Assembly (NCBI RefSeq): GCF_036365525.1
Contig: NC_090382.1
Coordinates: forward strand, 80,491,223 to 80,555,222
DNA length: 64,000 nucleotides
Source of the DNA: Heterodontus francisci
Taxonomy: Eukaryota
Reading direction: 5' to 3'
Below, in pieces: positions 6,654 to 64,000 of the stretch. The translations under genes and the position numbers were made by a program. The notes beneath the pieces are model-generated. The model was not told the DNA's origin. It worked only from the letters and a program-made list of their open reading frames with translations, and made no database searches. The first letter of the stretch is position 1; the number at the start of each line of letters is the position of its first letter.

Positions 6654-7289
6654 CTTGAATTTCTGGATATGCAGCCATGAAGAGAATAGCCCACAACACA
6701 GTATTGGATGTCGTGTCTGACCCTGCTACAAAGAGATCCCCAATTATATAAAATAAATAATCTTCACTGAAGCTTGTATTTTGGTTTCTTTGTATTTCAT
6801 GGTCTACTTCTTTCAGATAAAAATCAATAAAATCACGTGGGTTTTCAGGGTCCATAGTCTTTCGGTGCTGAGAAATTATGTTTTTCAGGAAGGTGGTTAC
6901 CTCTTTTACTGTTTGGCCAATCTCCTTGAAAGGCCCAAAAGGTAAATACTGAAGTAAAGGAATTACATTGATGAGCATTGCAGGGCTGTTTGATGCTAAT
7001 TTCATCCCTCGGACAATTAGACTCAGCATGGTTCTAAATTCCTCATCATCGTAGTCAAACCGTTTCCCAAAGCACATTGAGCAAATGATGTTAGACACAG
7101 CATTGTTAATGACATGAAATGGAGAGAAGGCTGTACCCACTGATTTGGAAAACTCTGACTTCACAAACTGCAGTTCCTCTATGATTTTAGGCTCTAAATC
7201 AAGCTTCCCGAAACCAAAGTGTCTTAGTGTCGAGAGGCAAAATCTTCTTTGTTGCTTCCAGACCAAGCCATATGGTGCAAAGACTATTC
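6654..7289 (-). CDS. CYP2U1: Cytochrome P450 2U1-like, coding exon 2
   Basis: Acceptor ttttcag|GA and donor CAAG|GTAC, 636 nt, phase 1-1. Encodes GIVFAPYGLVWKQQRRF (WxxxR) and I-helix YLFYIIGDLFVAGSDTTSN. Large exon 2 matches the recalled 5-exon CYP2U1 structure. Confidence 0.93.
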
Positions 7290-7308
7290 CTGAAAATAAT
7301 CACACGAG

Positions 7309-7666
7309 TAGATTAGATTAGATTAGAGATACAGCACTGAAACAGGCCCTTCGGCCCACCGAGTCTGTGCCGACCATCAACCACCCATTTATACTAATCC
7401 TACACTAATCCCATATTCCTACCAAACATCCCCACCTGTCCCTATATTTCCCTACCACCTACCTATACTAGTGACAATTTATAATGGCCAATTTACCTAC
7501 CAACCTGAAAGTCTTTTGGCTTGTGGGAGGAAACCGGAGCACCCGGAGAAAACCCACGCAGACACAGGGAGAACTTGCAAACTCCACACAGGCAGTACCC
7601 AGAATCGAACCCGGGTCCCTGGAGCTGTGAGGCTGCAGTGCTAACCACTGCGCCACTGTGCCGCCC
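7309..7666 (-). mobile_element. HE1/V-SINE-type SINE next to the CYP2U1 exon 2 acceptor
   Basis: Full head GGGCGGCACAGTGGCGCAGTGG, B box GGTTCGATTC and (TCTAA)n tail. Confidence 0.88.
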
Positions 7667-7917
7667 AGTACCTATTTATTACTTTAAAGAGAATCTGTAT
7701 TGTTCTAAATGGTTACATCATCTTAATTGTTCTGAAGCCAGATGCCTATGCACTGATCCATATCGCTCAGTTGCACTTCATGTTGTTTTATAACTGCAGT
7801 TTAAGGGAAACTTGGGAACAGATATTTTGTGAAAAAGTCCTTCTTTAATGACATTATGCATGAGGTTGTCCCCAGCAATCGACAATCATTACTCGAACGG
7901 GACGTTACATTAGGTAT

Positions 7918-8100
7918 AAAAACAAGAAATGCTGGAACCACTCAGCAGGTCTGGCAGCATCTGTGGAAAGAGAAGCAGAGTTAACGTTTCGGGTCACTGA
8001 CCCTTCATCGGAACTGACAAATATTAGAAAAGTCACCGGTTATAAGCAAGTGAGGTGGGGGTGGGGCAAGAGATTAGAAAAGTCACAGGTATTCACAGAC
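7918..8100 (-). mobile_element. Short Penelope family A 3' UTR insertion
   Basis: Matches 60780-60930. 12-bp TSD TACATTAGGTAT at 7906-7917 and 8101-8112. Confidence 0.8.
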
Positions 8101-8472
8101 TACATTAGGTATGTCCTGCCCAAAATGATAACACCGAGCTCTAACAAACAAGGGCTGACTGAGTCCATTAAATATACACATACCTCCCCCCCTTTACAAC
8201 ATTTGATAATGTGATTCTTCTTTTCACTTCCTCTTTAATATTTAAAGAATTGCTAACCAACAGGACTTGAGAAAACATTCACTAATGATTTAGGAAGAGA
8301 CAATTCACAAACTGGAAAGACAAGCAAGTTACAAGCTTCCTGACATCATGAATCATGAACTGTTTTCCAGGATCACATCAGGCAGCTGTTAACATTTCCA
8401 TTATAGTGTGTTTTTTTGGTACACTTACAGCTCCAGATCCATTAAAATTCCAGTCATAGACAGAGTACTGAG

Positions 8473-10348
8473 TGGATGATCTCTCATGGCCTCCTCTTGA
8501 GGCCCCCACCATCACAGAAGCCAGCCTTCAGTCAATTTGATTCATTCCACATAATATCAAAAATCAATGAGTGCACTGGATACAGAAAAGGCTGTGGGCC
8601 CCAACAACATCCTGGCTGTATTACCGAAGACATTTGCTCCAGAGCTAGCTGCGCCTCTAGCCAAGCTGTTCCAGTACAGCTGCAACACAGGTATGTCCAG
8701 GTATGTACTGGTCACAAAAAGCAGAACAAATGCAATCCAGTCAATAAGTCTACTCTCAATCATCAACAAAATGTTGGAAGGGCTATCAAGTAGCAATTAC
8801 TCACCAATACCGTTCACTGATGCTCAGTTTGGGTTCTGTCAGGACCACTTGACTCCAGGCCTCATAACAGCCTTGGAACTGCCAGAGGTAAGCGTGACTG
8901 CCCTTGACATCAAAGCAGCATTTGACTGTGGCAAAAAGAAGCCCTTGTAAAACTGAAGTCTATGGGAATCAGGGGGAAACCCCTGCACTGGTTAGAGACA
9001 TACCTAGCACAATGAAAGATGGTTGTTGGAGGCCAGTCATTTCAGCCCCAGTACACTGCTACAGGAGTTCCTCAGGGCAGTATCCTAGGCCCAACCACCT
9101 TCAGCTGCTTCATCAATTATCTTCCGTCCATCTTAAGGTCAGAAGTGTGATGTTCGCTGATGGTTGAACAGTGTTCAGTTCTATTTGCAACTCCTCAGAT
9201 AACGAAGCAGTCTGTGCCCACATGCAGAAAGAGCAGGATAACATTCAAACTTGGGCTGTTTAAGTGGAACATAAATTAAAATGTCCAACAAGGAGTCTAG
9301 CCACCTTCCGTAAACATTTAGTGGCATTACCATAACCAAATTCTCCACTATTAACTTCCTAGGTGTCACCACTGACCAGAAACTTAAGTGGACCAGCCAA
9401 ATAACTACTGTGGCTACAAAAGCAGGTCAAAGATTGGTTATTATACAGCAAGTGACTCACCTCTTCACTTCTCAAAGCCCTTCGACCATCTATGGGCGGC
9501 GCAGTGGTTAGCACTGCAGCCTCACAGCTCCAGCGACCCGGGTTCAATTCTGGGTACTGCCTGTGTGGAGTTTGCAAGTTCTCCCTGTGTGTGCGTGGGT
9601 TTTCACCGGGTGCTCCGGTTTCCTCCCACAGCCAAAAGACTTGCAGGTTGATAGGTAAATTGGCCATTATAAATTTCCCCTAGTATAGGTAGGTGGTAGG
9701 GTAATATAGGGACAGGTGGGGATGTGGTAGGAATATGGGATTAGTATAAATGGGTGGTTGATGGTCGGCACAGACTCGGTGGGCTGAAGGGCCTGTTTCA
9801 GTGCTGTATCTCTAAATAAAAAATAAAAATAACTAAAAATCTACAAGGCTCAAGTCAGGAATGTGATGGAATACTCTCCATTTGCTGAGATGAATGCCAC
9901 TCCAACAAAGCTCAAAGCACCTAACACCAGGACAAAGCAGCCCACTAGACTGGAATCCCATCCACCACCTTCAACATTCACTCCCTCCACCACCTGCACA
10001 CCGTGGCTGTAGTGTGCATCATCTACAAGATGCACTGCAGCAAATTGCCAAGGCTCTTCAACAGTACTTCCCAAACCAGTGACCTTTAGTGCCTAGTAGG
10101 GCAGCAGGTGCACGGGAACACCATGACCTGCAATTTTCCCTCCAAGTCACACACAATCCTGACTTGGAAACATATCATCATTCCTTCATCGTCTATGGGC
10201 AAAATTCCTGGAAATTCCTGCCTAACAGCACTGTGGGAGTACCTACATCACACGACTGCCGTGGTTCAAGAAGGCGGCTCCCCACAACCTTCTCAAGGGC
10301 AATAAATGCTGGCCTTACCACATCCCATGAATGAATTTTTTAAAAATC
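8473..10348 (+). mobile_element. 5'-truncated, decayed CR1-group LINE (same family as 24110-27326), interrupted by a SINE
   Basis: RT fragments (GPNNILAVLPKTFAPELAAPLAKLF, DAQFGF, TALDIKAAFD) and the shared 3' tail catcccatgaatgaa. Confidence 0.85.
9494..9838 (+). mobile_element. HE1/V-SINE-type SINE nested in the LINE
   Basis: Same family as 7309-7666, flanked by an ATCTA duplication. Confidence 0.85.
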
Positions 10349-10549
10349 ATGATACCATGTGAAAGGAGATCATGGGGCATGATCAGTATTATTTTCATCT
10401 AATACAACAGCACCAAACAACTGCATATACCTCAGATTCCAAAGTATGTCAAAGCTAAAAGTAACTGTTCATAGCTCACCGCACATTTTATAACTGCAAA
10501 CCCATAGCATCTTATGAACTAGTATCACTAGACTGCCTGCTTTCAACTT

Positions 10550-11340
10550 TGTTGTCTCATCCATCTGCTGTTGTAACCCTCATCCATGTCCTTATTACCT
10601 TTAAACACTACTATTCTAATATTCTCCTGGTCAGCCTCCCACCTTACTCCCTCTGTAAACTTCTGTTTTGGTTGTGTCAACATCATGGATTAACATCCAT
10701 ATTCTGCCAACAGGGGTAGGGCAAAGAGGCAGGTCCCCAAGTTTACCTCAGCTGGAGCAGGGATCGAACCCACACTGTTGGTGTTATTCTGAACCACACG
10801 CTAGCCACATAGCCAACTGAGCTAACCAGCCTTGAGTTCATCCAAAATCCTAACTCGCACCAAGTCCCATTCACCAATCACCCCTGCACTCAGCAGACTA
10901 TCTCAGTAGAAGTAGACTACAACTGGTTCCAGCCTGGCAATGCCTCAATTTAAAAATTCTCATCTTTGGTTTCAAATCCCTCTGTGACCTTGTTCCTCCC
11001 TATCTCTGTAACTTCTTCCTAGCCTCTGAGATCTCCGCGCTCCTCCAATTCTGTCATCTTGGGCATCCATGATTTTCTTTGTTCCAGCAGTTATGGCTAT
11101 GCATTCAGCTGTCCAGACCCTAAACTCTGGAATTACCTCCCTAAAGCTCTCTGGATATCTACCTCTCTCTCTCTGCCTTTAAGATGCTCCTTAAAACCTA
11201 AATCTTTCATCAAGCTTTTGGTAACCTGTCCTAATCTTGCTAAGTGGCTCAGTGTCAAGTTGTGTTTTGATAATCACTGCTGTGAAGTGCTTTGGGACAT
11301 TTTACTATGTTAAAGGTACTGTACAAATGCAAGTTGTTAA
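10550..11340 (+). mobile_element. L2-type LINE 3' end with a nested tRNA-headed SINE (about 10662-10831, minus strand)
   Basis: L2-like ORF2 C-terminal region and tail tgtgaagtgctttgggac...aaatgcaagttgtt. The insert has TAGCTCAGTTGG and GGTTCGATCCC boxes. Confidence 0.6.
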
Positions 11341-11673
11341 TAATCTATTTTCTCATCTCCTTTCTCGCTATACTTGCTTTGCACTGAACAAGAAGGTGGG
11401 CATGGAAGTTGCTCTCGAGCCATCTACAGTACAGCCTTGAAATTTGCTGGGAGGTGCATAACGGTAGCTATGGGTGATTATTTACAATTCACTCTCCCAT
11501 TTTAAAAGGAAGGGTATTTTATTTGCTCATCATCTCTGTGATGAAGATCTTTGCATTTGGAGGTTTCAAGGGCTCAAAATTGCAAGGATTCAGAGGGTTC
11601 CCTACAAAATATCTCACAGAGTACAAGTGATCAAGAGTTCTGACGAAAGGCCATCGACCAGAAACATTAACTC

Positions 11674-12793
11674 ATAAGAAACAGGAGCTGCAGTAGGCCA
11701 TTTGGCCCTTCGAGCCTGCTCCGTCATTCAACAAGATCATCGCTGATCTTCTATCTTAACTCCACCTTCTCACGCTCTCCCCATATCCCTTAATTCCCTT
11801 AATATTCAAAAATCTATTTTCCTGTCTTGAATATACTTAGCCGCTGAGCATCCACAGCTCTCTCAGGTGGAGAATTCCAAAGATTCACAACTGTTTGGAA
11901 AAATAAATTTCTCCTCATCGCAGTGCTAAATGGCTGACCCCTTATTCGGAGACTGTGACCCCATGTTCTAAATTCCCCATCCAAAGAAAACATTTTCTTT
12001 GCACATACCCTGTCAAGTCGCTTAAGGACTGTTTCAATTAGATCATCCTCATTCTTCTAAACTCCAGAGAAATGCAGGCCTGGTCTATTCAATCTTTTAT
12101 CACAGGTCAATCCCCTCATCCTAGGAACCAGTCTAGTGAACCTTTGCTCCACACCCTCTAGGGCAACTATGTCCTTCCTTAAGTAAGTGTTCAAAACTGC
12201 ACACAGTACTCTAGCTGTGGCCTCACCAATACCCGGTATAATTGTTCTAATACTTTACCTTTATACTCCAATCTCTTTGTTACAAAAGTTAACATACAAC
12301 TTGCCCTCTTAATTGCTTAACTTTCTGTGATTCATGTACAAGGACACCCAGGTCCCTCTGAATGCAAACATTTCCCAGTCTCTCACCTTTCAAAAAATAT
12401 TGTTTTATCTTTCCTACCAAAGTGGATAACTTCACACTTTGCCACATTGTATTCCATCTGCCATTTTCCCATTGCCCACTCACCCAACCTGTGTATATCT
12501 TTCTGAAGCTTGTGTCCTCCTCACCACTTACTTCCCCATCTAACATTGCACCGTCAGCAAACTTGGATACATTACTCAGTCCAGTTATCTAAGTAAAAAT
12601 AGATTGTAAATAGCTGAAGCCCAAGTACTGATCCTTGAGGTCCACTGCTATTTGCAGCCTGCCAACCCAAAATGTCCCGTTTATTCCTACTCTCTGCTTT
12701 CTATACATTAATGAATCCACAATCCATGCTAATCTGTTACCCCCAATCCCATGACTCCTAATTTTGTGTAATAACCTCTTGTGTGGCACCTTA
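11674..12793 (-). mobile_element. CR1 LINE 3' part inserted into a Penelope 3' UTR fragment (11635-11673 plus about 12795-12882)
   Basis: DKVPHKRLLHKIRSHGIGG and QRDLGVLVHES. The Penelope UTR resumes after the insertion. Confidence 0.8.
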
Positions 12794-13549
12794 TCTTCAC
12801 AGTTGCTGCCTGACTTACTGAGTATCTCAAGCATTTTCTGTTTTTTATTTCATATTTCCAACATCTGTAGTATTTTGCTTTTGATCAAAGAATTCTGTCT
12901 AGTGTGAACTGCACTGAACTAGCTAAAGCTCAGGGAACTCACGTCACACCAGACAACACGTGAGTTCAGATACAAGTGATTCACAAACTGATGGACAGGA
13001 ACTGAAAGTGTTCCAACAAAAGCAGTTATCTCAATAATGACACCATAAGAGTTGATTGTTGCAAAACTATTACCTGATTATCTTTTAAAAGTGTCTTCAT
13101 GGATATAATTTGCCCCTTGCATGTTGGAAACAAATTAGGGAAATAGTGGGGATGAAATTGGTCTTGTCACCCCATTATTTTAAACAAAAATATTTCTTGT
13201 ATCCAAATCCTATCCAGAACTACACAGGCTTCCAAACTGGAAGCCAGCGACTTCCAAGTGTTCAGGGCATCTGCCTGAAATCGGTGTTATGCACCTTGAA
13301 AGTGCAAATTAAGGTCCTATTGCCTGTTTTAGAACCCTGCTTGAAATACGTTATCAGCTGGGAACAGCATGCACCACTCAGTTTTTTGGGGTCCACAGCA
13401 GTCTAACCAGCAGACCATAAAGGAACAACTGGAGATGGCCTATGAAGTTGTAACTAACTTATTTATAGTTTTGTTTCTGTGGAATAAGGAGCAATAGTGC
13501 TCCCCTTGACTCCACTAAAATACTGCAAAAGTCGATATTGAAAAATATA

Positions 13550-13677
13550 TCTGATGAAATGTTATTGTTCTGAAACGTTAACTCTGTTTCTCTCTCCTTA
13601 GCAGATGCCTGACCTGCTGAATATTTCCACTAATTTCTGTTTATATTTCAGATTTCCAGCATCCACTGTATGCTGCC
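13550..13677 (+). mobile_element. Penelope 3' UTR fragment
   Basis: CTGATGA...GAAACGTTAACTC...gatttccagcatc, homologous to the other copies. Confidence 0.65.
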
Positions 13678-13684
13678 TAAAGAA

Positions 13685-13860
13685 ATATAGGCCTGGACAC
13701 CAGGACACCTTCCTGCTCTTCTTCACATCACTCCATGAAACCTTTATAAATGCACATGGGCAGGCTGATACAACTTCAGTTGAACATCTCAACCAAAAGA
13801 TGGCACCTCCCTCAGTACGGTCCAAAAGTGTCAGCCAAAATTATATAATCAAGTCCCATG
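13685..13860 (-). mobile_element. Deu-domain SINE fragment
   Basis: Reverse-complement similarity to 28120-28260. Confidence 0.45.
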
Positions 13861-15535
13861 CCATGCTATCCATAGATAATGGAAAAGATTTTGATTTGTA
13901 GGATACTCAGTCTGCTTATGAAAAGGGCCATTTTGTTATGAGTTAAAGTTAGGAGCTAGCCCAAACTATAACTTTATGACTTAACACTTCACTGTGTAGC
14001 ATGTTCGTGCATTATGCTGTCCCACCAAACCACAAAACAATTCTACAGATAGCACAATGTTACGCCCTTTATTTCCAACATGCCTTTGCATCATCCCTAC
14101 ACCTTGACTCTCTTCCAATTGTCCATTTGTTCAAAGCCACAGTGCTGTGTGACATGCCACTTTCAGCCCTTTTTTCAACCACACAGGGAGAGGTAGCCTT
14201 TATCAAATACCACGCTTAGCAACCAGGCTGAGCAGTGACATGGCTCGTGACTCGTATGTCTACTGGATGAAGAAACAGTTCTAGCTATGACTGGAATCTG
14301 CCCCCACAATACTGTGAAACTAAATGTCTTCTAACTATTATTACATCGAGTCATTACAGAATTGGTTTCACAAGAAATTGATTCTAATCTGTTCTGTAAA
14401 TTACCCTGTGATTTTATACAGCACTAGTCTTTATCAATTTTGATTTTTCAGGAACCAGTCAATATTTTTGAGGCAGGAGGTGGGTGAGGGCAACTTTTTT
14501 CCCTTAAGGTTTATGTGGGGAAGCCACTGGAGTTTTTTTTTCTTATTTTTACGTTTTGGGTTTTTTGGTTGGGGGGGAAGGGGCTTTTGCTGTGTTTTTT
14601 TGTCCCTTTGAGGACCTTTCCTTGTGTTGTCTCTCTACCTCCCAGTTTTTTATGTCTTCTTAAGTGAACATTGCTCACTGTTCTCGCCTTTTGTGGTTTC
14701 AATTTAATTGAAGCGTACAGTATTTTCTGCTGCAACCATTTTAGAACTGGCAAGCTGACTGTGTTTCTGGCAATTTCTGCTTTCATTTCAGTTCTCCTGC
14801 ATAGACAGGAGCAGAGGTACAGAAATGCCACTAGCAATGACCCTTCTTTCTAGTTTCTGCCTTTCCAGGTTAGGAAATCCTTGGACTTCCACTTGGTACC
14901 TTCTCATGGTTACAAAGCTGAGATGAAAAGCTTGTCTTGCAGAGAAAATCAAGTAATGCAACATTTGTCACTTATTGTTTCTCCCTCAGCTTCCTTTGTT
15001 GTTTTTAAGTCACTTTTTGTTTCTGTTCTGTTTCACTCTTTCTTTTCTTAAGTATTCCCTAAAGAGTGACAGCATACTGTACAAAAAGGAATGCACAATC
15101 ATCTGCTAGAACTGTTAGAAGTCAGCTGGCAATGTAGATGTTAACAATTTGGAAAACATTAATCCCTTGTTTGTATTTGGAATATGGAATGATGTACAAG
15201 ATTCATGACTAACTTTATTAAAATTACATACTGACTGTGGGGTGAAATTCTCCTTTGTAAGAGAATTTTTCTCCAATTACAAACCACTAACAAAATCCAG
15301 AGACCCTTCCCTCTTCAAGGTTTTTTGAGAATGCAATTTTGTTAACAAGTCAGTAATTGCAGAGGAAAATGGACAATTGCAGTTTTTTGTTGAGAAATTT
15401 CACTTCTTATCATGTCTATCTAAATACATATTATTTTGTAACAGTCCATTGTATTTATTTCATCCACAAGCAATGTCAAACATTCAACATATCCTCATTA
15501 GGGACAGCTTCCCCAAACCGTATAAACACCATAAT

Positions 15536-17931
15536 AAAGGCAAAATACTGCGGATGCTGGAGATCTGAAATAAAAACAAGAAATGCTGGAATAACAGAGA
15601 ATAACCGCTCAGAAGGTCATGGAGCAAAGGCAAACAATATGTTAATGGTACGTTGAAAGACAAAGCAATAGTAAAAATGGGGTGTTAATGGACTGAAAAC
15701 TGAACAGCCACAAACACAAACATGAAAAAAGTGGGTAGGCAAACTGAACAGACAAAGATAAAATAAAATAAACACAAAAAAATAAAAAATAAATAAAAAA
15801 TAACTAAAAGCATAAGTAAAATGGGGGGTCCGTCATGCTCTGAAATTATTGAACTCAATGTTCAGTCCAGCAGGCTGTAGTGTGCCTAATCGGTAAATGA
15901 GATGCCATTCCTCAAGCTTGTGTTGATGATCACTGGAACACTGCAGCAATCCCAGATCAGAGATGAGAGCAGGGGGGAGTGTTGCAATGGCAAGCAACCG
16001 GAAGCTCGGGGTCATGCTTTCGGACTGAGTGGAGGTGTTCCGCAAAGCGGTCAGCCAGTCTGCGTTTGGTCTCCCCAATGTAGAGGAGACCACATTGTGA
16101 GCAACAAATACAGCATACTACATTGAAAGTAGTACAAGTAAATCACTGCTTCACCTGAAAGGAATGTTTGGGGCCTGGGATAATGAAGAGAGAGGAGGTA
16201 AATGGGCAGGTATTACACCTCCTGTGATTGCAGGGGAAGGGGACGAGGTGGTGGGGGTAATGTAAGAGTGGACCAGGGTGTCGCAGAGGAAACGATCCCT
16301 TCGGAATGCTGACAGGGGAAGGGAGGGGAAGATGCGTTTGGTAGTGGCATCACGCTGGAGATGGTGGAAATGGCAGATGACGATCCTTTAGATATGGAGG
16401 CTGATGGGGTGGAAAGTGAGGACAAGGGGAACCCTGTCACGGTTCTGGGAGGGAGGGGAAGGGGCAAGGGTAGAGGTGCGGGAAATGGGCCGGACAGGGT
16501 TGAGGGCCCTGTCAACCACAGTGAGGGGGGGGGAATCCTCGGTTGAGGAAAAAGGAAGACACATCAGAAGCGCTGTCATGGAAGGTAGCACTATCAGAAC
16601 AGATGCATCGGAAACGGAGAAACTGGGAGAATGGAATGGAGTCCTGACATGGGGCAGGGTGTGAAGATGTGTAGTCAAGGTAGCTGTGGGAGTCGGTGGG
16701 CTTATAATAGATATTAGTAGACAGCCTATCCCCAGAGATGGAAACAGAGAAGTCGAGGAAGGGAAGAGAACTGTCGGAGATGGATCATATAAAGGTGAGA
16801 GAAGGGTGGAAATTAGAAGCAAAGTTGATAAAGTTTTCCAATTCGGGGTGGGAGCAGTAAACGGCACTGATACAGTCATCAATGTACTGGAAAAAGAGCT
16901 GGGGGAGGGGGCCTGAGTAGGACTGGAACAAGGAATGTTCGACATGTCCCACAAAAAGACAGGCATAACTAGGACCCATGCGGGTACCCATAGCAACACC
17001 TTTTACTTGAAGGAAGTGAGTGGAGTTGAAGGAGAATTTGTTCAATGTGAGAACAAGTTCAGCCAGGCAGAGGAGGGTGGCGATGGATGGGGACTGGTTG
17101 GACCGCTGTTCAAGGAAGAAGCGGAGAGCCCTCAAACTGTCCTGGTGGGGGATGGAGGTGTAGAGAGATTGGACGTCCATAGTGAAAAGAAGGCGATTGG
17201 GGCCAAGAAACCTGAAATTGTCAAAATGGCATAGGGTGTCAGAACAGTCACGGATCTAGGTAGGAAGAGACTGGACCAGCGGAGAAAAGATAGGGTCAAG
17301 ATAGGAAGAAATAAGTTCAGTGGGGCAGGAGCAGGCTGACAAAATGGGTCTGCCGGGACAGTCCTTTTTGTGGATTTTGGGAAGGAGGGAGAAACGGGCT
17401 GTTCGGGGTTGCGGGACTGTGAGGTTGGAAGCTGTAGAGGGAAGATCTCCAGAGAAGATGAGGTCAGTGACAGTCCTGTGGACAGTCACTTGATATACGG
17501 TGGTGGGGTCACGGTCCAGGGGGAGGTAGGAAGAAGTGTCAAAGTTGGCGCTGAGCCTCTACAAGGTAGAGGTCGGTACGCCAGACAACCACAGCACCAC
17601 CCTTATCTGCAGGTGTGATGACAATGTCGGGATTAGACCTGAGAGGACGGATTATCTTTACTAATGCTTTGTCTTTCAACACACCACTAACATATTGTTT
17701 GCCTTTGCTCCATGACCTTCTGGTCGGTTAATCTCCGTGACCTTGTCCTATCTACACCTTCCTCTTTGTTATCTCTTGCCCCACCCCCGCTTTACTTGCT
17801 TAAAACCTTTCACATTTCTAATATCTGCTAGTTCTGAAGAAGGGTCACTGACCTGAAACATTAACTCTGCTTCACTCTCCACAGCGGCTGCCAGACCTGC
17901 TGAGTATTTCCAGCATTTCTTGTTTTTATTT
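15536..17931 (-). mobile_element. Penelope family A element (RT + GIY-YIG, frameshifted) with an inverted 3' UTR arm at about 17651-17931
   Basis: GVAMGTRMGPSYA, YIDD and GIY-YIG region. Imperfect 17-bp TSD CGTATA(A/C)ACACCAT(A/G)AT at 15519-15535 and 17932-17948. Confidence 0.9.
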
Positions 17932-18249
17932 CGTATACACACCATGATGGGTACTCAACGTTTATGTGTGCTTATGTCTATTATAAGGCTTCTGTGTGGA
18001 CATAGTTCTACCACTTGTACACATACTAGTCCATATACGAAGATACTGAAGAGGTGGACGTGTATTGCAAAACTGCCATTCAATCAATTTCGGGTTCAAA
18101 TATCCTATGGCACAAAAGTGGGTTTGTTAAGTCGTCTGAACCATACACTGTATTACTTTCTAAATTCAACTATTTATTACTCTCATCCATTGCATTATCT
18201 TAATATTTAGCCAGTTGGTACTTTATCCACTGGCATTTTATTTAATTTG

Positions 18250-19080
18250 GTTAGCAGGGCCCTCGACCCAGTTTGCCCCATTCCCTGCACTTCTGTTCTT
18301 GACCCTTCCCCTTGCTTCCAGAATTATATATTCCCTTGTCTTCACCTTCCATCCCAACCGCCTCCACATTCAACATGCCAGACGAACCAGCAATTTACTT
18401 GTACGTCTTTCAATTTAGTATACTGTATTCGTTGCTCACAATGCAGTTTCCTCTACACTGGGGAGACCAAACGCAGGTTGGGTGATTGCTTTGCAGAACA
18501 CTTCAGCTTAGTCCGCAAGCATAACCCTGATCTTCCAATTGCCTGTCATTTTAATTCCCCGTCTCACTCCCACTCTGACCTTTCTGTCCTTGACCTGCTA
18601 CACTGTTCTAATGGAACTCAACAGAGCTCGAGGAATAGAATATAATCTTTTGATTAAGCACTTTACAGCCTTCCAAAGACTGAGTTCAACAATTTCTGAT
18701 CACAACCATTGCTCCCTTTTTTGGACAGCCGCTGTTGGCAATGATTATGCCATTCACAGCTCCGCTAGACCAACCTTTTGTGTCTTTACTTGTCCCATAC
18801 CACCGCCTTTGCCTTGCACTATCATTTCTTTGTCATTTAGTCTCTCTTGCCTTTCACCCTCTCAGACCTTCTGTTTTGTTCTTTCCTCCCCCTCTCCTTT
18901 CTTTGCATCTGTACTTGCTTAAAATTCGTTACATTCCTAACTTTTTCCACTTCTGATAATAGATCATTTACCTGAAACGTCAACTTCCCTTCTCTCTCCA
19001 CAGATGCTGCGTGACTTAGAGTATTTCCAGCATTTTCTGTTTTTATTTCAGAAGTCCAGCATCTACAGTATTTTGCTTTT
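18250..19080 (+). mobile_element. Older Penelope 3' fragment (GIY-YIG plus UTR)
   Basis: FTCTSFNLVYCIRCSQCSFLYTGETKRRLGDCFAEH. Confidence 0.85.
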
Positions 19081-19089
19081 CTCGATTTA

Positions 19090-19754
19090 ATCGACTGGTA
19101 CCGAATCATCCACTGGAACACTCTTTCTTTAACCAAGTAGTACTATGTCATCTATGGCGTCTCTCTCTATTTAACTGGCTGGTACACTGTCATCCACTAC
19201 TACAATCTTGAATTGGCTGGTACTATCATTGACTGGCATGCTCTCTATTTAACTGGTTGATACCCTGTCATCCACTGCCATTGTCTAGATACTTAATCAG
19301 TTGGTACTGTGTCACCCACTGGCAGTCTGTTTAATCAGCTGGTACTGTCACCCACTGGCACTCCATTTAATCAGCTGGTACACTGTCACCCACTGGCACT
19401 CCATTTAATCAGCTGGTATACTGTCACCCACTGGCAGTCTGTTTAATCAGTTGGTACAGTCACCCACTGGCAGTCTATTTAATCAGCTGGTACACTGTCA
19501 CCCACTGGCACTCCATTTAGTCAGTTGGTACAGTCACCCACTGGCACTCCATTTAGTCAGTTGGTACACTGTCACCCATTGGCACTCCGTTTAATCAGCT
19601 GGTACACTGTCACCCACTGGCAGTCTGTGTAATCAGCTGCTACACTGTCACCCACTGGCACTCCATTTAATCAGTTGGTACAGTCACCCACTGGCACTCC
19701 ATTTAGTCAGTTGGTACAGTCACCCACTGGCACTCCATTTAGTCAGTTGGTACT
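19090..19754. repeat. 36-38 bp minisatellite at the start of CYP2U1 intron 1
   Basis: Roughly 18 tandem units of CA(CT/)GTCACCCACTGGCACTCCATTTA(A/G)TCAG(C/T)TGGTA. Homogeneous near the exon and degenerate toward 19090. Confidence 0.92.
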
Positions 19755-19759
19755 CTAAC

Positions 19760-20132
19760 CTTTGCGCTGGGTTATGATGGTGATCAGAGGGATGGTGGGT
19801 CTGTCGGAAAACACCTCCGCGTTGTGCTGAAGCGCATCTTTGACCGTTTGGAAGCCATTGAGCACGACCAGGAGCCGGCTGCCCAGGTACAAGCTGCAAA
19901 TGTCGCCATACGCCTTGCCCAGGGCGGTGAGCTGCAGATGCGGCGGGAGCTGGGCCCCGGAGCCCGGCCTCCAGGCCAAGGTGGGCAGCGAACCGATCAG
20001 GGGCCAGCAGGGCGGGCCGGCGGGGATCCGGCCCCGGCTTTTTCGGTTCATGAAGTAGCGGGTCAGGAAGAGAGCAGCGAGCATTATCAGGGTGACCACT
20101 AGGCAGTCACCGGCCTCCCCAGCCGCCTCCAT
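19760..20132 (-). CDS. CYP2U1: Cytochrome P450 2U1-like, coding exon 1
   Basis: ATG at 20132. N-terminal membrane anchor, basic stretch, proline-rich hinge (IPAGPPCWPLIG) and VFSDRP motif. Ends AAAG|GTTAG, phase 1, 373 nt. GC/CpG-rich. Confidence 0.9.
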
Positions 20133-20156
20133 GTCGCCGACGCCTGGCTCCGCTCG

Positions 20157-31399: not shown

Positions 31400-32200
31400 A
31401 AGCAGGACAAGGAAGAGGGAGGGAGGAGGCAGGAGGCCATATCTGGCCAGGTTGTTCAGAGAGTAGTTCTCTTACCTGAACTTCAGTGAGGAACAATATG
31501 TGAGACATATGCACTTCAGTTAGGACCTCCACACTGAAATCTGCCAACTACTGCAGCTGCAACTGCAACCTCAGAGCAGGGCAAGATTTGCACTATGAAA
31601 ATGATCATGGCAATGGACTTTGCATTTGGCTCCTTCCAGGCTGGAGCTGGATATTTGCAACATCTCGGAGTTTGCCATCCACTGTTTTGAAAGGGTCTCT
31701 ACTGAGGCTCTCTACTCATTAAGGGCTAACTGCATTTCACTCTCTTGCTGGAGAGAAACAGGCAGAGCGAACACGTGGCTCCGCCAGAATTGCAAGCTTC
31801 CCCATGGTGCCGAGCGCCATTGACTGCATGCACATCACTTTTCAGGTGCCACTTTTCAACTCTGCCCTATACTGGATTCCTCTCCCTCAACTTCCAGCTG
31901 GTGTGTGACCATAAGCAGAGAATCATGGAAGTCAATGCCTGGTATCCTGGTAGCAGTCATAATGCCTCCATTGTGCAGCAGTACGCTGGGGCAGCTGCAT
32001 TTGAGCGACCATGAAAGTGTGGCTACTGAGTGGCAAGGGCATTCCACTGATAACTCCAGTGGGAAACCATGCACATGTACGCAGTGTGCATACAATGAAT
32101 GTCATGCTATCACATGAATTGTGATACATTCCCCCTATCTGGACTGCTGTGGAGGAGCCCTGCAGTACTCAGCAGAGTGGGTGTCAAGATTTACGGTGAG
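31400..32200 (+). mobile_element. Second decayed PIF/Harbinger transposase
   Basis: GFLSLNFQLVCDHKQRIMEVNAWYPGSSHNASI, the DDE_Tnp_4-type PGSxHD region. Confidence 0.75.
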
Positions 32201-56294: not shown

Positions 56295-56344
56295 TTCAAA
56301 GGGGCGGGAAGAAAAAGGACAGTTATGCCCCAACCCTATTTAAA
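56295..56344 (+). promoter_or_regulatory. Candidate DKK core promoter: TCF/LEF site, GC box, TATA-like box
   Basis: TTCAAAG 56295-56301, GGGGCGGGA 56301-56309 and TATTTAAA 56337-56344, about 180-230 bp upstream of the ATG. Confidence 0.55.
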
Positions 56345-56525
56345 AACTGAAATGGAAATAGGATATGGCAGATTTTAGGAACAGTAACTGACTGCGTAAC
56401 TGAAGTTGAACCGTGCTGCAACTAGATACAGAGGATCATTTCGGTTTATCAACTGGCACCTGTATTTTAAATTGCTTTATTTTAAATCATTTAGATCAAG
56501 ATTAAGAGAACGTAAAATTTTGAAA

Positions 56526-56720
56526 ATGATGCAGGTGAAAGATTGTTGCAAATATATAATATTTTATTTGCTGTTGAGCTCGTGCTGGGTGATGGGGGGA
56601 AATGCTTTAAATAGAAATTCCATCAAAAAGGCAGAAAGTGAAGGAATTCCATCGCTACATGTCAACACCTCGACAGGGATTCAGCAGGGACACAACAGCA
56701 ACAAAGCTGCTGACATCCAG
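56526..56720 (+). CDS. Dickkopf-related protein (DKK1/2/4 class, DKK2-like), coding exon 1 with signal peptide
   Basis: MMQVKDCCKYIIFYLLLSSCWVMGGNALNRNSIKK...NTSTGIQQGHNSNKAADIQ. Hydrophobic signal peptide, DKK-type NSIK motif and an N-x-S sequon. Donor CAG|GTACTT, phase 0, in frame with exon 2. Confidence 0.82.
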
Positions 56721-59700
56721 GTACTTCACTTTGGAGATTTGTCTTAAAAGATTATTTGTATATTTTATTCCCAACAACTTATTGATGGGTTGCTGCTTCT
56801 TTATTTAATTCCAAACCTGATCTGATTTAATTGGGTAGCGCACCATTAAAACACAAGATTAAATTATATCAAATCATCTTTGTATATATTTTAAAAATGC
56901 ATAATTCGTGTTTCGATTTTTTTTTCTACCATTAGATGGACTTGGTCAACCTATTATTTTCCTTGATGGAACAGCTTGCAATTCAATTTGAAAACTATAG
57001 TCCTTTAATAATTCTTTTATACCACTGTATGGAGTTTGCAAGAACTATCGCTAAGAAACTTACATTGTATAAGCTGTAGAGAATTCCAGGTTACTTATTA
57101 TTGCAACTATTTATACTTTGAGGAGTTTTCGATTGATATGTGATGATTATCGGGACGGAGAGCGGCACCAGTCCTGGGTCTTCAAATAATGAAATAGGTA
57201 TTTGGATTGAGTAGTTCGTTTCCCCCCAAACAGGCACAGATTTCCAGAATCGTAGTATTTTGCTCTTCTAATAGATCTGACTTTTTTCATAAAAATGGGT
57301 GCCTGCACACAGTCATTTTAAACCAAGTTTAAACTAATATTAGAGTGGAAAAATCATAAATGTTTTTAGATTTACAATGCATAGGTAACTGTTTTGTTAC
57401 CCAGTAGATTGATTTTTTTTTTAAATTCAGAAGTTGTACAAGACAGGAAGTAAAGCAGTTACAAAAATATCGATTTTTTTTTTTGTGCAAGTTTTTGTTC
57501 CTCGTTAACCGAACTGGATTGAGCAAGTTACTGAGCCCCGTGCGAGAGTAGAGATAATTAACAAACATCACGCAACTGAGCGGTCCCGGAGTTTGTACCA
57601 ATTTTACCACAGATGATTTAACTTTGCAATGTAGCCTCAGTCACATCTTCGAGTAGCCTGCCCCACAATTCATCGGTACTTACTGTTTAAAAAAAATATT
57701 CAAAAAAAGTTAGTGGAACAGAACACAAAAGACATTAAAGTTAATATAACTGACCATCTTAAATGATTTGGTGTGAGACTCTTTAAAAAGGTGAAGATTA
57801 CCATAGGAGACACTTGAAAAGCGAATTTTCACCCCATATAATAATCATTAAAGAACTCTCTCATAGTACAATCTTCGCTATACCCAGACAGATACCAGCT
57901 GTGTTAGCAGCTTCAGTGCTAAACAATTCAACAGCAGCCTGAGTGGTAATGAACTTTGGATCAGCAACAAGGTCTGAGAAAGGTGTCAATCCGTGCTATT
58001 TTTGCAGAGGCAGACACTGAAGTCAGCTTCAGGAGGCTGTCAGAAAGGGGATTAAAGGCAAAGAATTTTCCTAACAGTGAGAAGAAAACTATAATATTTT
58101 TCCTCTAACTATGGGAAATTACTTTCAACTCATCCCTTACTCACTGTAATGCTCTGTTGTAAGGAGCTGAGCCATAACTTCCAACCCAAAATCTCGGGCT
58201 GCCAACAAACTTTTAAAACGTGTACAAGCGTTCAGTCCCTTGAGCCTGTACTGCCATTCAATAAAACATGGCTGATCTGGACCCTGAATCCATTTACTCC
58301 CTTTGGTAATCTCTTTTACAAAACTTATCAAGTACCTTCTGGAAGCCTATGTAGAAAACAGTCATAGACACTTTACTATCCAATAAGGAAGTCCTCCAAA
58401 AAAAAAAATCATAGATGACCTACCTTTCACAAATTCGTGCTGCCTCTCTTTGATCTCTTCATTCTTGTCCAAGCGTTCCAGAAGCTTCCTCGAAAATGAT
58501 GTAAAACTGATAGGTCTACAATTAACTAAAAACTAAACAGAAAATGCTGGAAATACTCAGCAAGTCTGGCAGCACCTGTAGAGAAAGAACCAGAGTTAAC
58601 AGTAAAGTAGTTGACTGGAAAACTGGGGATAAACCCATTGCCATTGGGCCTGAAAGCCATACTGCTATCTTGCATGCACAGACACTTAATTGGCTTCAGT
58701 CGGGCTTCCACCCATCTGAGTCAGGAAATCCCGCCTTTAAGAGCTGCCAGCCAATCAGAGGGCTGGCAGCTCTTCAATCCCAGTAGCCTCACTGGGAGTG
58801 GTGGGACTGTTGGGATTGCACCCAGCTGGAAAAGAAACATGGAAATTGGTCTCAGAACAGGTAGGTGGGCATTGGGCCTTGCTGGGGACAATTGGCTAGG
58901 CCCTGTTGAGGTAGGGGCAGGGGGGTTAGGAGTGTACAGCAGGTTCTTATTTTATCGGGGGTGGCCTGTGCAGTGGGGGGCTTCCGTGGTGCTTGATCAG
59001 GAGGGGCCCCCATCCCACAAGGAGGCCACCTCCTCAGGTGCTGAACTGCCTGTCCACCATGGCACAATTACTGAATTTAGAGAATGTTGGGAAATTATGA
59101 CCAACATAGCTGCAATTTCCTTAACCCTTCAGGTTCTGGAGCTTTTCTTATCTGAAGTTCAATTATTTGCTCTGTAACTATGTTTTAAAAATGTATTTTA
59201 ATACACTAGGTTCTTCCACTTGACATTTTTAGATTCCTTGTACCACTGGCATTTGCTCATCATTCTCCACTGTGAAAATGGACATAACATACTCATTTAA
59301 CAAGTTTGCCATTTCCTTATTGGCAATTATAATCTTTGCTACATATTTCTTTAATGGGCACAAATTTATACTGCCTCCTCCTTTAAAAAAACCTGCTCCA
59401 CTGGATGATGTCTTGAGCAGAAAGACTAGTGCAGCTGGGGTTCAGCTCCTAATCCACAGTCTAATAGCCTGTTAAAATAGGACTATGAATTTGAATATGG
59501 AAGCAGAATTGAAGGTACATACTAAAGATTTTAATTAAAGGATAATATAGTTTTAACATTCCTCATTAGTGAAAATGTATTTCTTTTTTGTAAAGATTTT
59601 AGACTATTGTAAATAGAGAAGCAAAGGAAAAACTGATAATTCTCTTCTGTAAAAATAAATGTCAAGAACCAATTTAGTTCTTTAGTCAGAGGCAGAAATG

Positions 59701-59824
59701 TCACAACCAAATTGCAATTCATGAGTTTGAGAATCCAATGATTTCTGACAATGCTAGAGCAGCTGGGAACAACTAGGATTCTGTATTTCCTAGTTCCATT
59801 GTTCGGCAGCCATAAAGGCGGGGC

Positions 59825-60055
59825 TAAAGTTTGGCGAGTTGAAGAGACTTAGCAGTTGGCAGGAAAAAAGACAGAGGCGCAAGGGGAGAGCCAACTGTGT
59901 AACAGCCCCAACAAACAAATTTTTCTGCAGCACCTGTGGAAGAGCCTGTCACTCGAGAATTGGCCTTTATAGCCACACCAGGCGCTGCTCCACACACCAC
60001 TGACCACTTCCAGGCGCTTACCCATTGTCTCTTGAGATAAGGAGGCCAAAGAAGA
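59825..60055 (+). mobile_element. RTE 3' end in DKK intron 1
   Basis: Reverse complement of 50424-50655. Confidence 0.85.
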
Positions 60056-60558
60056 TTGTTCAGAATAGCCATCAAAATGAAATAAATTCTCAATTTTTTT
60101 CTGAATGCTTTTTACTTTGAGTAATGAAGAATCAGGCAGAGAATAAATGCAGGAAGAATCTCACAAAAAGTTGGCCATTTAAAACTTTGGTTTCTAAGTT
60201 TAGGATTTAAAAGAGTAATGTTACAAAGACATTTTGAAATAATCAAGGTTATCTGGATTTCTTGTTTACCCCTAGAGCAACTAAAAAGATAACTGCAGTT
60301 CTTTATTTTGTTTGTAATACAAGTGCAAGCAATTTGTACAATGACATTTGCTGTAAAGTAAGAAGTAGATACCTGTGTGAAACTTATTTTAGATAACATA
60401 GGCTTTGAAAATAAGCACTTCAGAGGGATGGAATGATCCTGAAACCTGGGAAGGATGAAAAAAACCTGATAATCTTTTTCTTCAGGGCATTGCTTGCAGA
60501 AGTGTTAAAATATGAGCCACTGTGACAGAGAGGTGACCCTCATTTCATTCCTGTTTAG

Positions 60559-60703
60559 GTGTGCACAGCAGATGAAGATTGTGGGACCAAGACATACTGC
60601 TCCACATCTCATCAGAGAAGACAAATATGTATTTCATGTAAAAAGCAAAAGAAACGTTGTCACAGAGATAGGATGTGCTGTCCTGGAAATCATTGCATTA
60701 ATG
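60559..60703 (+). CDS. Dickkopf-related protein, coding exon 2 (N-terminal cysteine-rich domain)
   Basis: Acceptor cctgtttag|GTG and donor AATG|GTAGG, 145 nt. Encodes VCTADEDCGTKTYCSTSHQRRQICISCKKQKKRCHRDRMCCPGNHCIN(G), the Dickkopf_N cysteine pattern. Confidence 0.93.
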
Positions 60704-60735
60704 GTAGGAATTAAAACCAAAGGGAGGACATCTCT

Positions 60736-63700
60736 ATAATAAAAGCAAAATACTGCGGATGCTGGAAATCTGAAACAAAAACAAGAAATGCTGGATTCAC
60801 TCAGCAGGTCTGGCAGCATCTGTGGAAAGAGAAGCAGAGTTAACGTTTCGGGTCAGTGACCCTTCTTCGGAACTGACAAATATTAGAAAAGTCACAGATT
60901 ATAAACAAGTGAGGTGGGGGTTGGGCAAGAGATAACAAAGGAGAAGGTGCAGATTGGACCAGGCCACATAGCTGACCAAAAGGTCACAGAGCAAAGGCAA
61001 ACAATATGTTAATGGTGTGTTGAAAGACAAAGCATTAGTACAGATTAGGTGTGAATATACTGAATATAGAACATCAGCAAGTGCAAACCTGAAGAAAAAC
61101 AACCTGAAAAAAACAGTGGGTAAGCAAACTGAACAAACTAAGATGAAATGAAATAAATGCAAAAAATGTAAAAAGGAATGCAAAAAAAAAAGGAAGAAAA
61201 AATAACTAAAAATGAAAGTAAAGTGGGGCGCTGTCATGCTCTGAAATGATTGAACTCAATGTTCAGTCCGGCAGGCTGTAGTGTGCCTAATCGGTAGATG
61301 AGATGCTGTTCCTCGAGCTTGCGTTGATGTTCACTGGAACACTGCAGCAATCCCAGGACAGAGATGTGAGCATGAGAGCAGGGGGGAGTGTTGAAATGGC
61401 AAGCAACCGGAAGCTCAGGGTCCTGCTTGCGGACTGAGCGGAGATGTTCCGCAAAGCGGTCACCCAGTCTGCGCTTGGTCTCCCCAATGTAGAGGAGACC
61501 ACACTGTGAGCAGCGAATACAGTATACTACATTGAAAGAAGTACAAGTAAATCGCTGCTTCACCTGAAAGGAGTGTTTGGGGCCTGGGATAGTGAGGAGA
61601 GAGGAGGTAAATGGGCAGGTATTACACCTCCTGCGATTGCAAGGGAAGGTGCCCTGGGACGGGGACGAGGTGGTGGGGGTAATGGAGGAGTGGACCAGGG
61701 TGTCGCGGAGGGAACGATCCCTTCGGAATGCTGACAGGGGAAGGGAGGGGAAGATGCGACTGGTAGTGGCATCACGCTGGAGGTGGCGAAAATGGCGGAG
61801 GATGATCCTTTGGATATGGAGGCTGGTGGGATGAAAAGTGAGGACAAGGGGAACCCTGTCACGGTTCTGGGAGGGAGGGGAAGGGGTGAGGGTAGAGGTG
61901 CGGGGAATAGGTCGGACACGGTTGAGGGCCCTGTCAACCACAGTGGGGGGAAATCCTCGGTTGAGGAAAAAGGAGGTCATATCAGAAGCACCGTCATGGA
62001 AGGTAGCATCATCAGAGCAGATGCGTCGGAGACGGAGAAACTGGGAGAATGGAATGGAGTCCTTACAGGAGGTAGGGTGTGAAGAAGTGTAGTCGAGGTA
62101 GCTGTGGGAGTCAGTGGGCTTATAATGGATATTGGTAGACAACCTATCCCCAGAGATGGAGACAGAGAAGTCGAGGAAGGGAAGGGAAGTGTCAGAGATG
62201 GACCATGTAAAGGTGAGAGAAGGGTGGAAATTGGAAGCAAAGTTGATAAAGTTTTCTAGTTCGGGGCGGGAGCAGGAAACGGCACCGATACAGTCATCAA
62301 TGTACCGGAAAAAGAGTTGGGGGAGGGGGCCTGAGTAGGACTGGAACAAAGAATGCTCGACATATCCCACAAAAAGACAGGCATAACTAGGACCCATGCG
62401 GGTACCCATAGCGACACCTTTTACTTGAAGGAAGTGCGTGGAGTTGAAGGAAAAGTTGTTCAATGTGAGAACAAGTTCAGCCAGGCGGAGGAGGGTGGTG
62501 GTGGATGGGGACTGGTTGGGCCTCTGTTCCAGGAAGAAGCGGAGAGCCCTCAAACCATCCTGGTGGGGGATGGAGGTGTAGAGCGATTGGACGTCCATAG
62601 TGAAGAGGAGGCGGTTGGGACCAGGAAACTGGAAATTGTCAAAATGACGTAGGGCGTCAGAAGAGTCACGGATGTAGGTGGGAAGAGACTGCACCAGCGG
62701 AGAAAAGATAGAGTCTAGATAGGAAGAAATAAGTTCAGTTGGGCAGGAGCAGGCTGACACAATGGGTCTGCCGGGACAGTCCCGTTTGTGGATTTTGGGA
62801 AGGAGATAGAAGCGGGCTGTCCGGGGTTGCGGGACTATGAGGTTGGAAGCTGTAGAGGGAAGATCTCCAGAGGAGATGAGGTCAGTGACAGTCCTTTGGA
62901 CGGTGGCTTGATGTTCGGTGGTGGGGTCATGGTCCAGAGGGAGGTAGGAAGAGGTGTCTGTGAGTTGGCGTTGAGCTTCTGCAAGGTAGAGGTCGGTACG
63001 CCATACAACAACAGCACCACCCTTGTCTGCAGGTTTGATGACCATGTCGGGGTTAGACCTGAGAGAACGGAGTGCCTCAAGTTCAGAGGGGGACAGGTTA
63101 GAGTGAGTGAGGGGGGCAGAGAAATTGAGACGACCAATGTCTCGCCGACAGTTTTCAATGAAGAGATCAAGAGCGGGTAAGAGGTCAGGGTGAGGGGTCC
63201 AGGTAGAGGGAGAATGCTGGAGGCGGGTGAATGGGTCTGCTGGTCGGGGGGAGGACTCCTGGTCAAAGAAGTGAGCCCGGAGGCAGAGGCGACGGAAGAA
63301 GAGCTCAACGTCATGCCGAGCACGAAATTCATTGAGGTGGGGGCGTAAGGGGATAAAACTGAGACCTTTGCTGAGTACAGAACGCTCAGCAGCAGAGAGG
63401 GGGAGGTCAGAGGGTATAGTGAATACACGGCAAGGGGTCAGATCAGAAGGGGTGGGGTCAGAGGGAAGTGAAGCGGAAGGAGGATCTGGAGGGGCATTAG
63501 TCCCCATCAGCTGCTGGAGCTTGCGTTCCTTAACACCTGAAAGGAAGAAAAAAAGTTTTTTGTTAATGCGTCGGATGAGACGTAAGATGAGATGAAACTG
63601 CGGAGTAGAACAGATTTGAGATAAGGTGAGACGGTGCTGCTGGAGAGAGAGGTCCAGTGTGTGCATATGGCGGCGCATAGCACTGAGTGTAGATCTCAGG

Positions 63701-64000
63701 ATGCGGCGAGAGTAGCAGTCCGAGGAACGTTGTATTTCTCGGAGATACCTGTGATCCTGGGTGGTTTCAAAGCATGATGGGTGAAACTGCAGTTGGAATC
63801 CACGTGGAATCAGTCGGAGTCGGATCCTCAACCGAGGATTTCCCCCCACTGTGGTTGACAGGGCCCTCAACCGTGTCCGACCTATTCCCCGCACCTCTAC
63901 CCTCACCCCTTCCCCTCCCTCCCAGAACCGTGACAGGGTTCCCCTTGTCCTCACTTTTCATCCCACCAGCCTCCATATCCAAAGGATCATCCTCCGCCAT
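60736..64000 (-). mobile_element. Young Penelope family A element in DKK intron 2, with an inverted arm from 63825 running off the window
   Basis: Uninterrupted frame from about 63824 to 61234 with KPADKGGAVVV, GVAMG, RYIDD and GIY-YIG (VYCIRC..LYIGET). 3' UTR 61233-60736. Confidence 0.95.
60838..60874 (-). ncRNA. Variant minimal hammerhead ribozyme motif in the family A 3' UTR
   Basis: AGTT CCGAAGA A GGGTC-ACT-GACCC GAAA CGTT AACT. Older copies have canonical CTGANGA (11635-11673, 17830-17866). Confidence 0.6.

Follow-up and report, generated by a model that had tools for sequence, protein, structure and literature searches.

An intact four-exon Dickkopf gene of Heterodontus francisci, probably the fourth DKK1/2/4-type copy of the early vertebrate genome duplications

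A stretch of 64 000 nucleotides of the Heterodontus francisci genome (NCBI RefSeq assembly GCF_036365525.1, contig NC_090382.1, here C12, positions 80,491,223 to 80,555,222 of the forward strand; the whole stretch is called the window) was analysed for a Dickkopf gene towards its right-hand end. The gene is well supported as a real, distinct and ancient paralogue of DKK1, DKK2 and DKK4 and is probably the fourth genome-duplication copy of this subfamily. An initial annotation, made from the letters alone, had joined two exons in frame; their coordinates proved correct, the GT and AG ends are present and the joined frame is open (Table 1). The exons 3 and 4 that it expected to the right of the window are both present, with the frame unbroken to the stop. 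Exon 4 was located by tblastn of exon 4 of DKK1 from the same genome (E = 5e-29) in the 200 kb to the right of the window and exon 3 by tblastn with orthologues, a de novo scan for splice patterns having missed exon 3. The spliced model consists of four exons coding for 241 residues, without an internal stop and with 10 + 10 domain cysteines. Its intron phases (0/1/1) are equal to those at the shark DKK1 locus, and an AATAAA lies about 190 nt past the TAG stop of exon 4. The stop-free frame across exon 2 is just 51 codons long, which would explain why this exon was missing from the open reading frame track. No 56720-60559 junction was present among 15 of the 23 joints listed for four low-share RNA runs over 56300-60760, where the cover is repeat-driven.

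The protein begins with a hydrophobic stretch resembling a signal peptide (judged by eye), which is conserved in the orthologues, and carries an NxI motif at residues 31-33 that is also found in 5/5 full-length orthologues checked. The Dickkopf_N domain reported for exon 2 was recovered with PF04706 (E = 2.8e-15; score 56.8 bits, cut-off 25), so that the identity of this exon is not due to chance; the cysteines of the first domain span residues 67-116. Exon 4 matched PF21481 (E = 5.4e-18) and PF21479 (E = 9.5e-15) over the cut-off, both of the C-terminal colipase fold of DKK1/2/4 type. With the catshark orthologue as the query, the PDB matches were to the second cysteine-rich domain (CRD2) of DKK2 and DKK1, the best being DKK2 chain 2jtk_A (E = 3.2e-30). 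The gene shows these features of the DKK1/2/4 subfamily: N-terminal and C-terminal cysteine domains, NxI, four exons with phases 0/1/1 and the Kremen-contact residues described below. An AlphaFold2 model of the catshark orthologue (10-row alignment) had a mean predicted local distance difference test score (pLDDT) of 48.6, was usable in parts of the second domain and was not used as evidence.

Table 1. Coordinates of the Dickkopf gene, its neighbours and the related blocks. Plain numbers are window positions; positions of exons 3 and 4 in brackets extend the window numbering.
Feature	Position	Strand	Details
Coding exon 1	56526..56720	+	195 nt; ATG start, phase-0 GT donor; signal-peptide-like N-terminus, NxI motif, N-terminal linker
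Intron 1	56721..60558	+	3838 nt; GT..AG; contains interspersed repeats
Coding exon 2	60559..60703	+	145 nt; AG acceptor, phase-1 GT donor; Dickkopf_N, 9/10 cysteines of first domain
Intron 2, start	60704..64000	+	Total 17407 nt; GT..AG; retroelement inside on minus strand; gene continues past window
Exon 3	C12:80569333-80569467 (78111-78245)	+	135 nt; AG..GT, phase 1-1; last cysteine of domain 1 and linker
Intron 3	between exons 3 and 4	+	4485 nt; GT..AG
Exon 4	C12:80573953-80574203 (82731-82981)	+	251 nt; second cysteine-rich domain, 10 cysteines, TAG stop
Dickkopf gene	C12 80.548-80.574 Mb	+	Four-exon model
TCF/LEF gene	C12 80.03-80.22 Mb	-	332 kb upstream of Dickkopf gene
CYP2U1-type P450	C12 80.50-80.51 Mb; window 6664..20141	-	Exons located at 19758-20141 and 6664-7299; 36 kb upstream of Dickkopf gene, head to head with it
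VDAC	C12 from 80.67 Mb	+	96 kb downstream of Dickkopf gene
C1 block	TCF/LEF 274.08-274.17, HADH-type 274.28, SGMS 274.36, PAPSS 274.49, DKK2 274.71 (Mb)		
C47 block	VDAC 2.54, DKK4 2.60, TCF/LEF 19.3 (Mb)		
C20 block	DKK1 30.12, SGMS 31.35, PAPSS 31.87, TCF/LEF 62.1 (Mb)		

Across the genome, Dickkopf_N matches were found at five places (142 candidates scored), and the exon-4 protein matched exactly four loci (19 candidates scored) on contigs C1, C12, C20 and C47. The phylogenetic tree assigned C1 to DKK2, C20 to DKK1 and C47 to DKK4, so that the locus count gives each of these genes a contig of its own in addition to the gene on C12. The initial annotation had offered a fast-evolving DKK2 as one of two readings; this option fails, because the four loci include a canonical DKK2, the nearest paralogue, which sits among its usual neighbours on a different contig. 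The gene on C12 has no place in the LEF1-HADH-SGMS2-PAPSS1 block, which we take to be the human DKK2 neighbourhood and which on C1 carries its own DKK2. The fifth Dickkopf_N match (L005, C33:50055823-50055963, minus strand, E = 8.7e-13) has another cysteine spacing and no DKK1/2/4 second-domain match, and no clear DKK3 locus was seen among the five Dickkopf_N matches of the genome.

In the first cysteine domain 27/49 positions are identical to DKK2 of the same genome, 24/51 to DKK1 and 23/52 to DKK4. Shark DKK1 and DKK2 themselves are alike at 24/49 positions, and the DKK1/DKK2 mosaic described in the initial annotation is therefore ordinary divergence. The missing YP before the first cysteine, also remarked on there, is not diagnostic, since 4/4 cartilaginous-fish DKK2 rows of the alignment lack it as well.

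Trees were calculated from an alignment of the two cysteine domains (138 columns), the loci on C1, C20 and C47 being represented by exons 2 and 4 only and the outgroup consisting of amphioxus and other presumed invertebrate rows (3/7 named). The LG+G4 tree contained 53 rows and the LG+C20 tree 56; the long-branch rows P0244, P0249 and P0255 were excluded from the LG+G4 tree and from the approximately unbiased (AU) tests and were included in the LG+C20 tree. The gene and six orthologues formed one clade with support of 100/97 under both models. This clade lay outside DKK2 in both trees, DKK1 and DKK4 formed clades of their own, and the phylogeny proposed as a check in the initial annotation thus separates the gene from all three. 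None of the three long-branch rows joined the clade under LG+C20, and the amphioxus record P0209 fell outside all four DKK clades. DKK2 was the sister group with support of 97/93 (LG+G4) and 98/93 (LG+C20). Grouping the gene with shark DKK2, which corresponds to a duplication in the shark lineage, was rejected (p-AU = 8.7e-5). Since the split from DKK2 the clade has accumulated 0.57-0.68 changes per column against 0.30-0.37 in DKK2, about twice as many. The independence and age of the gene are well supported.

Orthologues entered as 'DKK2-like' were identified in the sharks Scyliorhinus (XP_038651836), Mustelus (XP_078087579) and Heptranchias (record P0023) and in the lobe-finned fish Latimeria (XP_005989421) and Protopterus (XP_043925098); the chimaera orthologue (Callorhinchus, XP_042195941) bears the plain name DKK2. 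These 'DKK2-like' records are this gene under automatic names. The initial annotation had considered a possibly unassigned paralogue; databases already model its orthologues as 'dickkopf-related protein 2-like'. Full-length identity is 73-74% to catshark and smooth-hound (Mustelus) and 57-58% to chimaera, and exon 1 matches the N-terminal part of the catshark and smooth-hound proteins at 62-64% identity. A canonical DKK2 accompanies this gene in each of chimaera, smooth-hound, coelacanth and lungfish. A profile of four orthologues was run against 1.84 billion cluster representatives; among the best 150 of 201 matches the coelacanth and lungfish proteins ranked next after the profile members. 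When 343 proteins were scored, 21 fitted the clade profile best, 15 of them strongly (155-265 bits) and six weakly and non-specifically (59-85 bits); the 15 are all records, or their clusters, from cartilaginous fish, coelacanth and lungfish. Its distribution thus extends beyond cartilaginous fish: of the proposed fourth ohnologue kept in that group, the ohnologue stands and the confinement does not. Neither ray-finned fish nor tetrapods nor rays yielded a member among the best 150 of 201 and the best 120 of 794 matches, in which clustering can hide members, and for ray-finned fish and tetrapods this is absence from limited lists, not proof of loss. No amphibian protein joined the clade among the 343 scored by profile. 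Xenopus 'dkkx', reportedly an extra DKK1/2/4-type gene of the frog genome papers, could be an amphibian orthologue.

The label 'DKK2-like' spans unrelated paralogues. Candidate orthologues from teleosts, namely 'DKK2-like' proteins of Cyprinodon and Polymixia and a Periophthalmus record without a name, were rejected as they fall within the DKK2 clade. The teleost 'DKK2-like' records P0185, P0186 and P0188 lie inside that clade and are likely a copy from the teleost duplication, while P0249 stands for a highly divergent catfish 'DKK2/4-like' group with no firm place in the tree. The chimaera model P0006 (UniRef A0A4W3HAR7) lacks the first cysteine domain because exon 2 was read in the wrong frame, an annotation error visible from its alignment to a shifted frame of exon 2 of the present gene.

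On C12 the gene has a TCF/LEF gene on one side and a VDAC gene on the other, an order that rests on located marker genes, with all but 75 kb of the interval between TCF/LEF and the P450 covered. The C12 VDAC exon scored 134 bits to VDAC1 against 117 bits to VDAC2 chains (11 matches, no VDAC3 among them). TCF/LEF loci occur on C1, C12, C20 and C47, the same four contigs as the DKK genes, UNC5-type UPA domain loci on C1, C12, C42 and C47, and EGR-type domain loci on C12, C20 and C47. As looked for in ohnologues, the DKK, TCF/LEF, UNC5-type and EGR-type loci are thus found one per paralogous contig (C1, C12, C20 or C42, and C47); the age also agrees, the clade spanning chimaera, sharks, coelacanth and lungfish with amphioxus outside. 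A VDAC lies 55 kb from DKK4 as well, which points to an ancestral DKK-VDAC link. We take the shark blocks to correspond to blocks on human chromosomes 4, 5q, 8p/2 and 10, and human TCF7 and VDAC1 to stand head to head without an intervening DKK. By their middle exons, read directly, the TCF/LEF genes fall into the two pairs C1/C12 and C20/C47, which is the pairing of the skate chromosome table (PMC10115646). The linkage group in that table comprises 1-alpha LER15 + LER34 (GGA6), 1-beta LER35 (GGA22), 2-alpha LER1 and 2-beta LER11 (GGA13). From this we infer that C12 is the 2-beta member, which fits both the sister position of DKK2 and the faster rate of beta segments stated in the accessible text of the same paper (PMC10115646). 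On C42 an SGMS-type gene stands beside a VDAC at 15.81-15.85 Mb, with a UNC5-type gene at 6.0 Mb; one arm of the paralogon seems to be split between C20 and C42, like LER15 + LER34 in the skate table (PMC10115646).

The P450 upstream of the Dickkopf gene has a large exon and is named CYP2U1 by the Atlas. Genome searches with two of its exons gave no match on C1 near LEF1 among the matches listed, and no P450 match was found in C1:274170001-274370000, a 200 kb interval between LEF1 and SGMS that is free of N and holds HADH. Human CYP2U1 lies in the LEF1-SGMS2 gap. The shark may possibly retain the other CYP2U1 ohnologue, a case of reciprocal loss and hidden paralogy.

The structural background for the receptor contacts comes from DKK1, whose second domain sits between LRP6 propeller 3 and Kremen1 and contacts the latter through R191, S192 and K226; its N-terminal peptide binds LRP6 propeller 1, and the ternary complex triggers internalization (accessible text of PMC5014086). 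The LRP6-side contacts are H204, F205, W206, S228, E232 and R236 (as cited in PMC5325476). DKK1 numbering was transferred via a squirrel DKK1 row, whose residues agree with all the contacts named. All three Kremen contacts are present in this gene (R191 in 7/7, S192 in 6/7 and K226 in 7/7 clade rows), as are three of the six LRP6 contacts (H204, W206 and R236; 6/7, 6/7 and 7/7 rows). In the DKK1/2/4 subfamily the NxI motif acts on LRP6 propeller 1. By homology with DKK1 the protein would be secreted and would grip the LRP5/6 co-receptor with its NxI motif and its second cysteine domain, while the opposite face of that domain would recruit Kremen, the co-receptor being blocked or removed from the cell surface.

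It is very likely that the locus holds an intact four-exon Dickkopf, distinct from DKK1, DKK2 and DKK4, that is the fourth two-round-duplication copy and codes for a predicted secreted Wnt/beta-catenin inhibitor. Its origin as the fourth copy of the two early vertebrate genome duplications, the ohnologue reading of the initial annotation, is highly probable, with a separate clade and four loci on four paralogous contigs in its support. Several observations weigh against this account. Forced grouping with DKK1 (p-AU = 0.34) or DKK4 (p-AU = 0.36) was not rejected, so that DKK2 as the sister group is moderately supported, and a clade constrained to leave out the coelacanth and lungfish rows gave only a borderline result (p-AU = 0.07). 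The synteny evidence comes from this one genome, in which the C12 TCF/LEF gene is named TCF7 by elimination and by the human gene order, the PDB and the Atlas having given it no name. Three LRP6 contacts are altered in this gene (F205L, S228A and E232V): position 205 is leucine in 7/7 clade rows against phenylalanine in 32/32 DKK1 and DKK2 rows, the serine at 228 is missing from 7/7 clade rows and E232 is kept in 4/7, with valine in this species.

The gene could instead stem from an old segmental, small-scale duplication of the DKK2 region, independent of genome doubling and older than the split of cartilaginous and bony fish, whose product carried the CYP2U1-type gene along to C12. The sister position of DKK2 fits it as well, and the only CYP2U1-type gene found adjoins this Dickkopf and is absent from the LEF1-SGMS2 gap on C1; however, the segment must have landed by chance between a LEF1 paralogue and VDAC, on the sole paralogous chromosome without a DKK, and the VDAC near DKK4 points to an ancestral link of DKK with VDAC, all of which makes this origin improbable. 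The best non-orthologous matches are DKK2 proteins and the database names also speak for a fast-evolving true DKK2, or for a DKK2 duplicate that arose within cartilaginous fish. That explanation is already refuted and scarcely credible, as the conserved DKK2 on C1, beside LEF1, HADH, SGMS and PAPSS, groups with all other DKK2s, the shark-lineage duplication was rejected by the AU test and coelacanth and lungfish have orthologues. A rate above that of DKK2 might suggest a decaying or silent gene, but the frame of the model is undisturbed by stops or frameshifts, its splice sites are canonical, all 20 domain cysteines are present and its identity to the catshark, smooth-hound and chimaera proteins is maintained over the full length, so decay is very improbable.

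The main rival concerns the job of the protein. By homology with DKK1, LRP5/6-Kremen inhibition of Wnt is probably retained, with a binding of LRP6 that may be weaker or shifted. With the same origin, it could instead have kept the Kremen face and remodelled the face towards the third LRP6 propeller, becoming a weak or Kremen-biased modulator. The clade-wide changes fall on LRP6 contacts or next to them: in addition to those at 205 and 228, the clade has F234Y (7/7) and Q235E (6/7), at sites fixed in the 32/32 DKK1 and DKK2 rows, and the C-terminal RLHxCQ motif lacks its histidine in 7/7 rows; most of these sites are fixed in the 32 rows, the Kremen residues are retained and the rate is about twice that of DKK2. 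The substitutions are mostly conservative, however, and H204, W206 and R236 are unchanged. The tail histidine and S228 are missing from DKK4 rows too, and L205 and Y234 occur in gar DKK4; since DKK4 is a working Wnt inhibitor, these shared departures count against a changed job. Faster evolution is, moreover, expected for beta-subgenome copies, as far as the accessible text goes (PMC10115646). On balance a change of job is unlikely, and inhibition of the DKK1 type is the preferred reading. A wider picture is doubtful as a whole: that jawed vertebrates had four DKK1/2/4 genes, of which the fourth, surviving unrecognized beside TCF7/VDAC1 in sharks, chimaeras, coelacanth and lungfish, is a Wnt modulator with a remodelled LRP6 face, a kept Kremen face and a shifted receptor bias and was lost separately in tetrapods and ray-finned fish, the shark 'CYP2U1' being a paralogue of human CYP2U1.

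Several mobile-element remains were noted in the window. A retroelement, presumably Penelope-like, occupies about 60730-64000 and beyond on the minus strand of intron 2, beginning just past exon 2; it has a long frame with a weak match to GIY-YIG at its end (E = 5e-4, below the cut-off), and similar copies lie near 16000-17900 and 20800-21400. Between the P450 and the Dickkopf gene there are a reverse transcriptase remnant of the long interspersed nuclear element (LINE) type at 24559-27039 on the plus strand (RVT_1, E = 4e-30) and, at about 30400-32000, a weakly matching fragment of a DDE transposase (DDE_Tnp_4, E = 7e-4, below the cut-off).

Among known systems, the gene most resembles DKK2, its nearest paralogue, sharing the two cysteine-rich domains, the NxI motif and a LEF1/TCF7-type neighbour. 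It differs in its separate locus and clade, in domains that are 27/49 and 49/77 identical to those of DKK2 in the same genome, in the substitutions F205L, F234Y and Q235E and the missing tail histidine, and in its rate. DKK1 and DKK4 belong to the same subfamily, the DKK1 locus having the same four-exon plan and DKK4 also lying near VDAC, but they have their own loci on C20 and C47 and their own clades. The retention pattern is that of Pdx2, a genome-duplication copy of another family kept in cartilaginous fish and coelacanth and absent in tetrapods and ray-finned fish (accessible text of PMC2944030), and of the 17 ohnologues, also of other families, that the accessible text of the skate paper reports as retained in chondrichthyans and coelacanth (PMC10115646); the gene list of the latter may bear on novelty. 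The term 'dkk' is absent from the main text of the skate paper (PMC10115646), the part seen of a shark tooth preprint names dkk1 alone, and no dkk was found in PMC8851675. No description of a fourth DKK1/2/4 paralogue was found in the literature searched, with most subscription papers outside its reach.

Retention in cartilaginous and lobe-finned fish is already known from Pdx2 and others, which limits the surprise. The trio DKK1, DKK2 and DKK4 is regarded as covering all LRP5/6-binding Wnt antagonists of vertebrates, and a fourth paralogue completes the quartet. Its recognition corrects 'DKK2-like' labels that can confuse developmental studies of sharks and lungfish (teeth, fins and skin organs), and the gene supplies a naturally varied LRP6-binding surface open to direct assay. 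If it is absent from tetrapods yet present in lungfish, a Wnt regulator would have been lost near the water-to-land transition.

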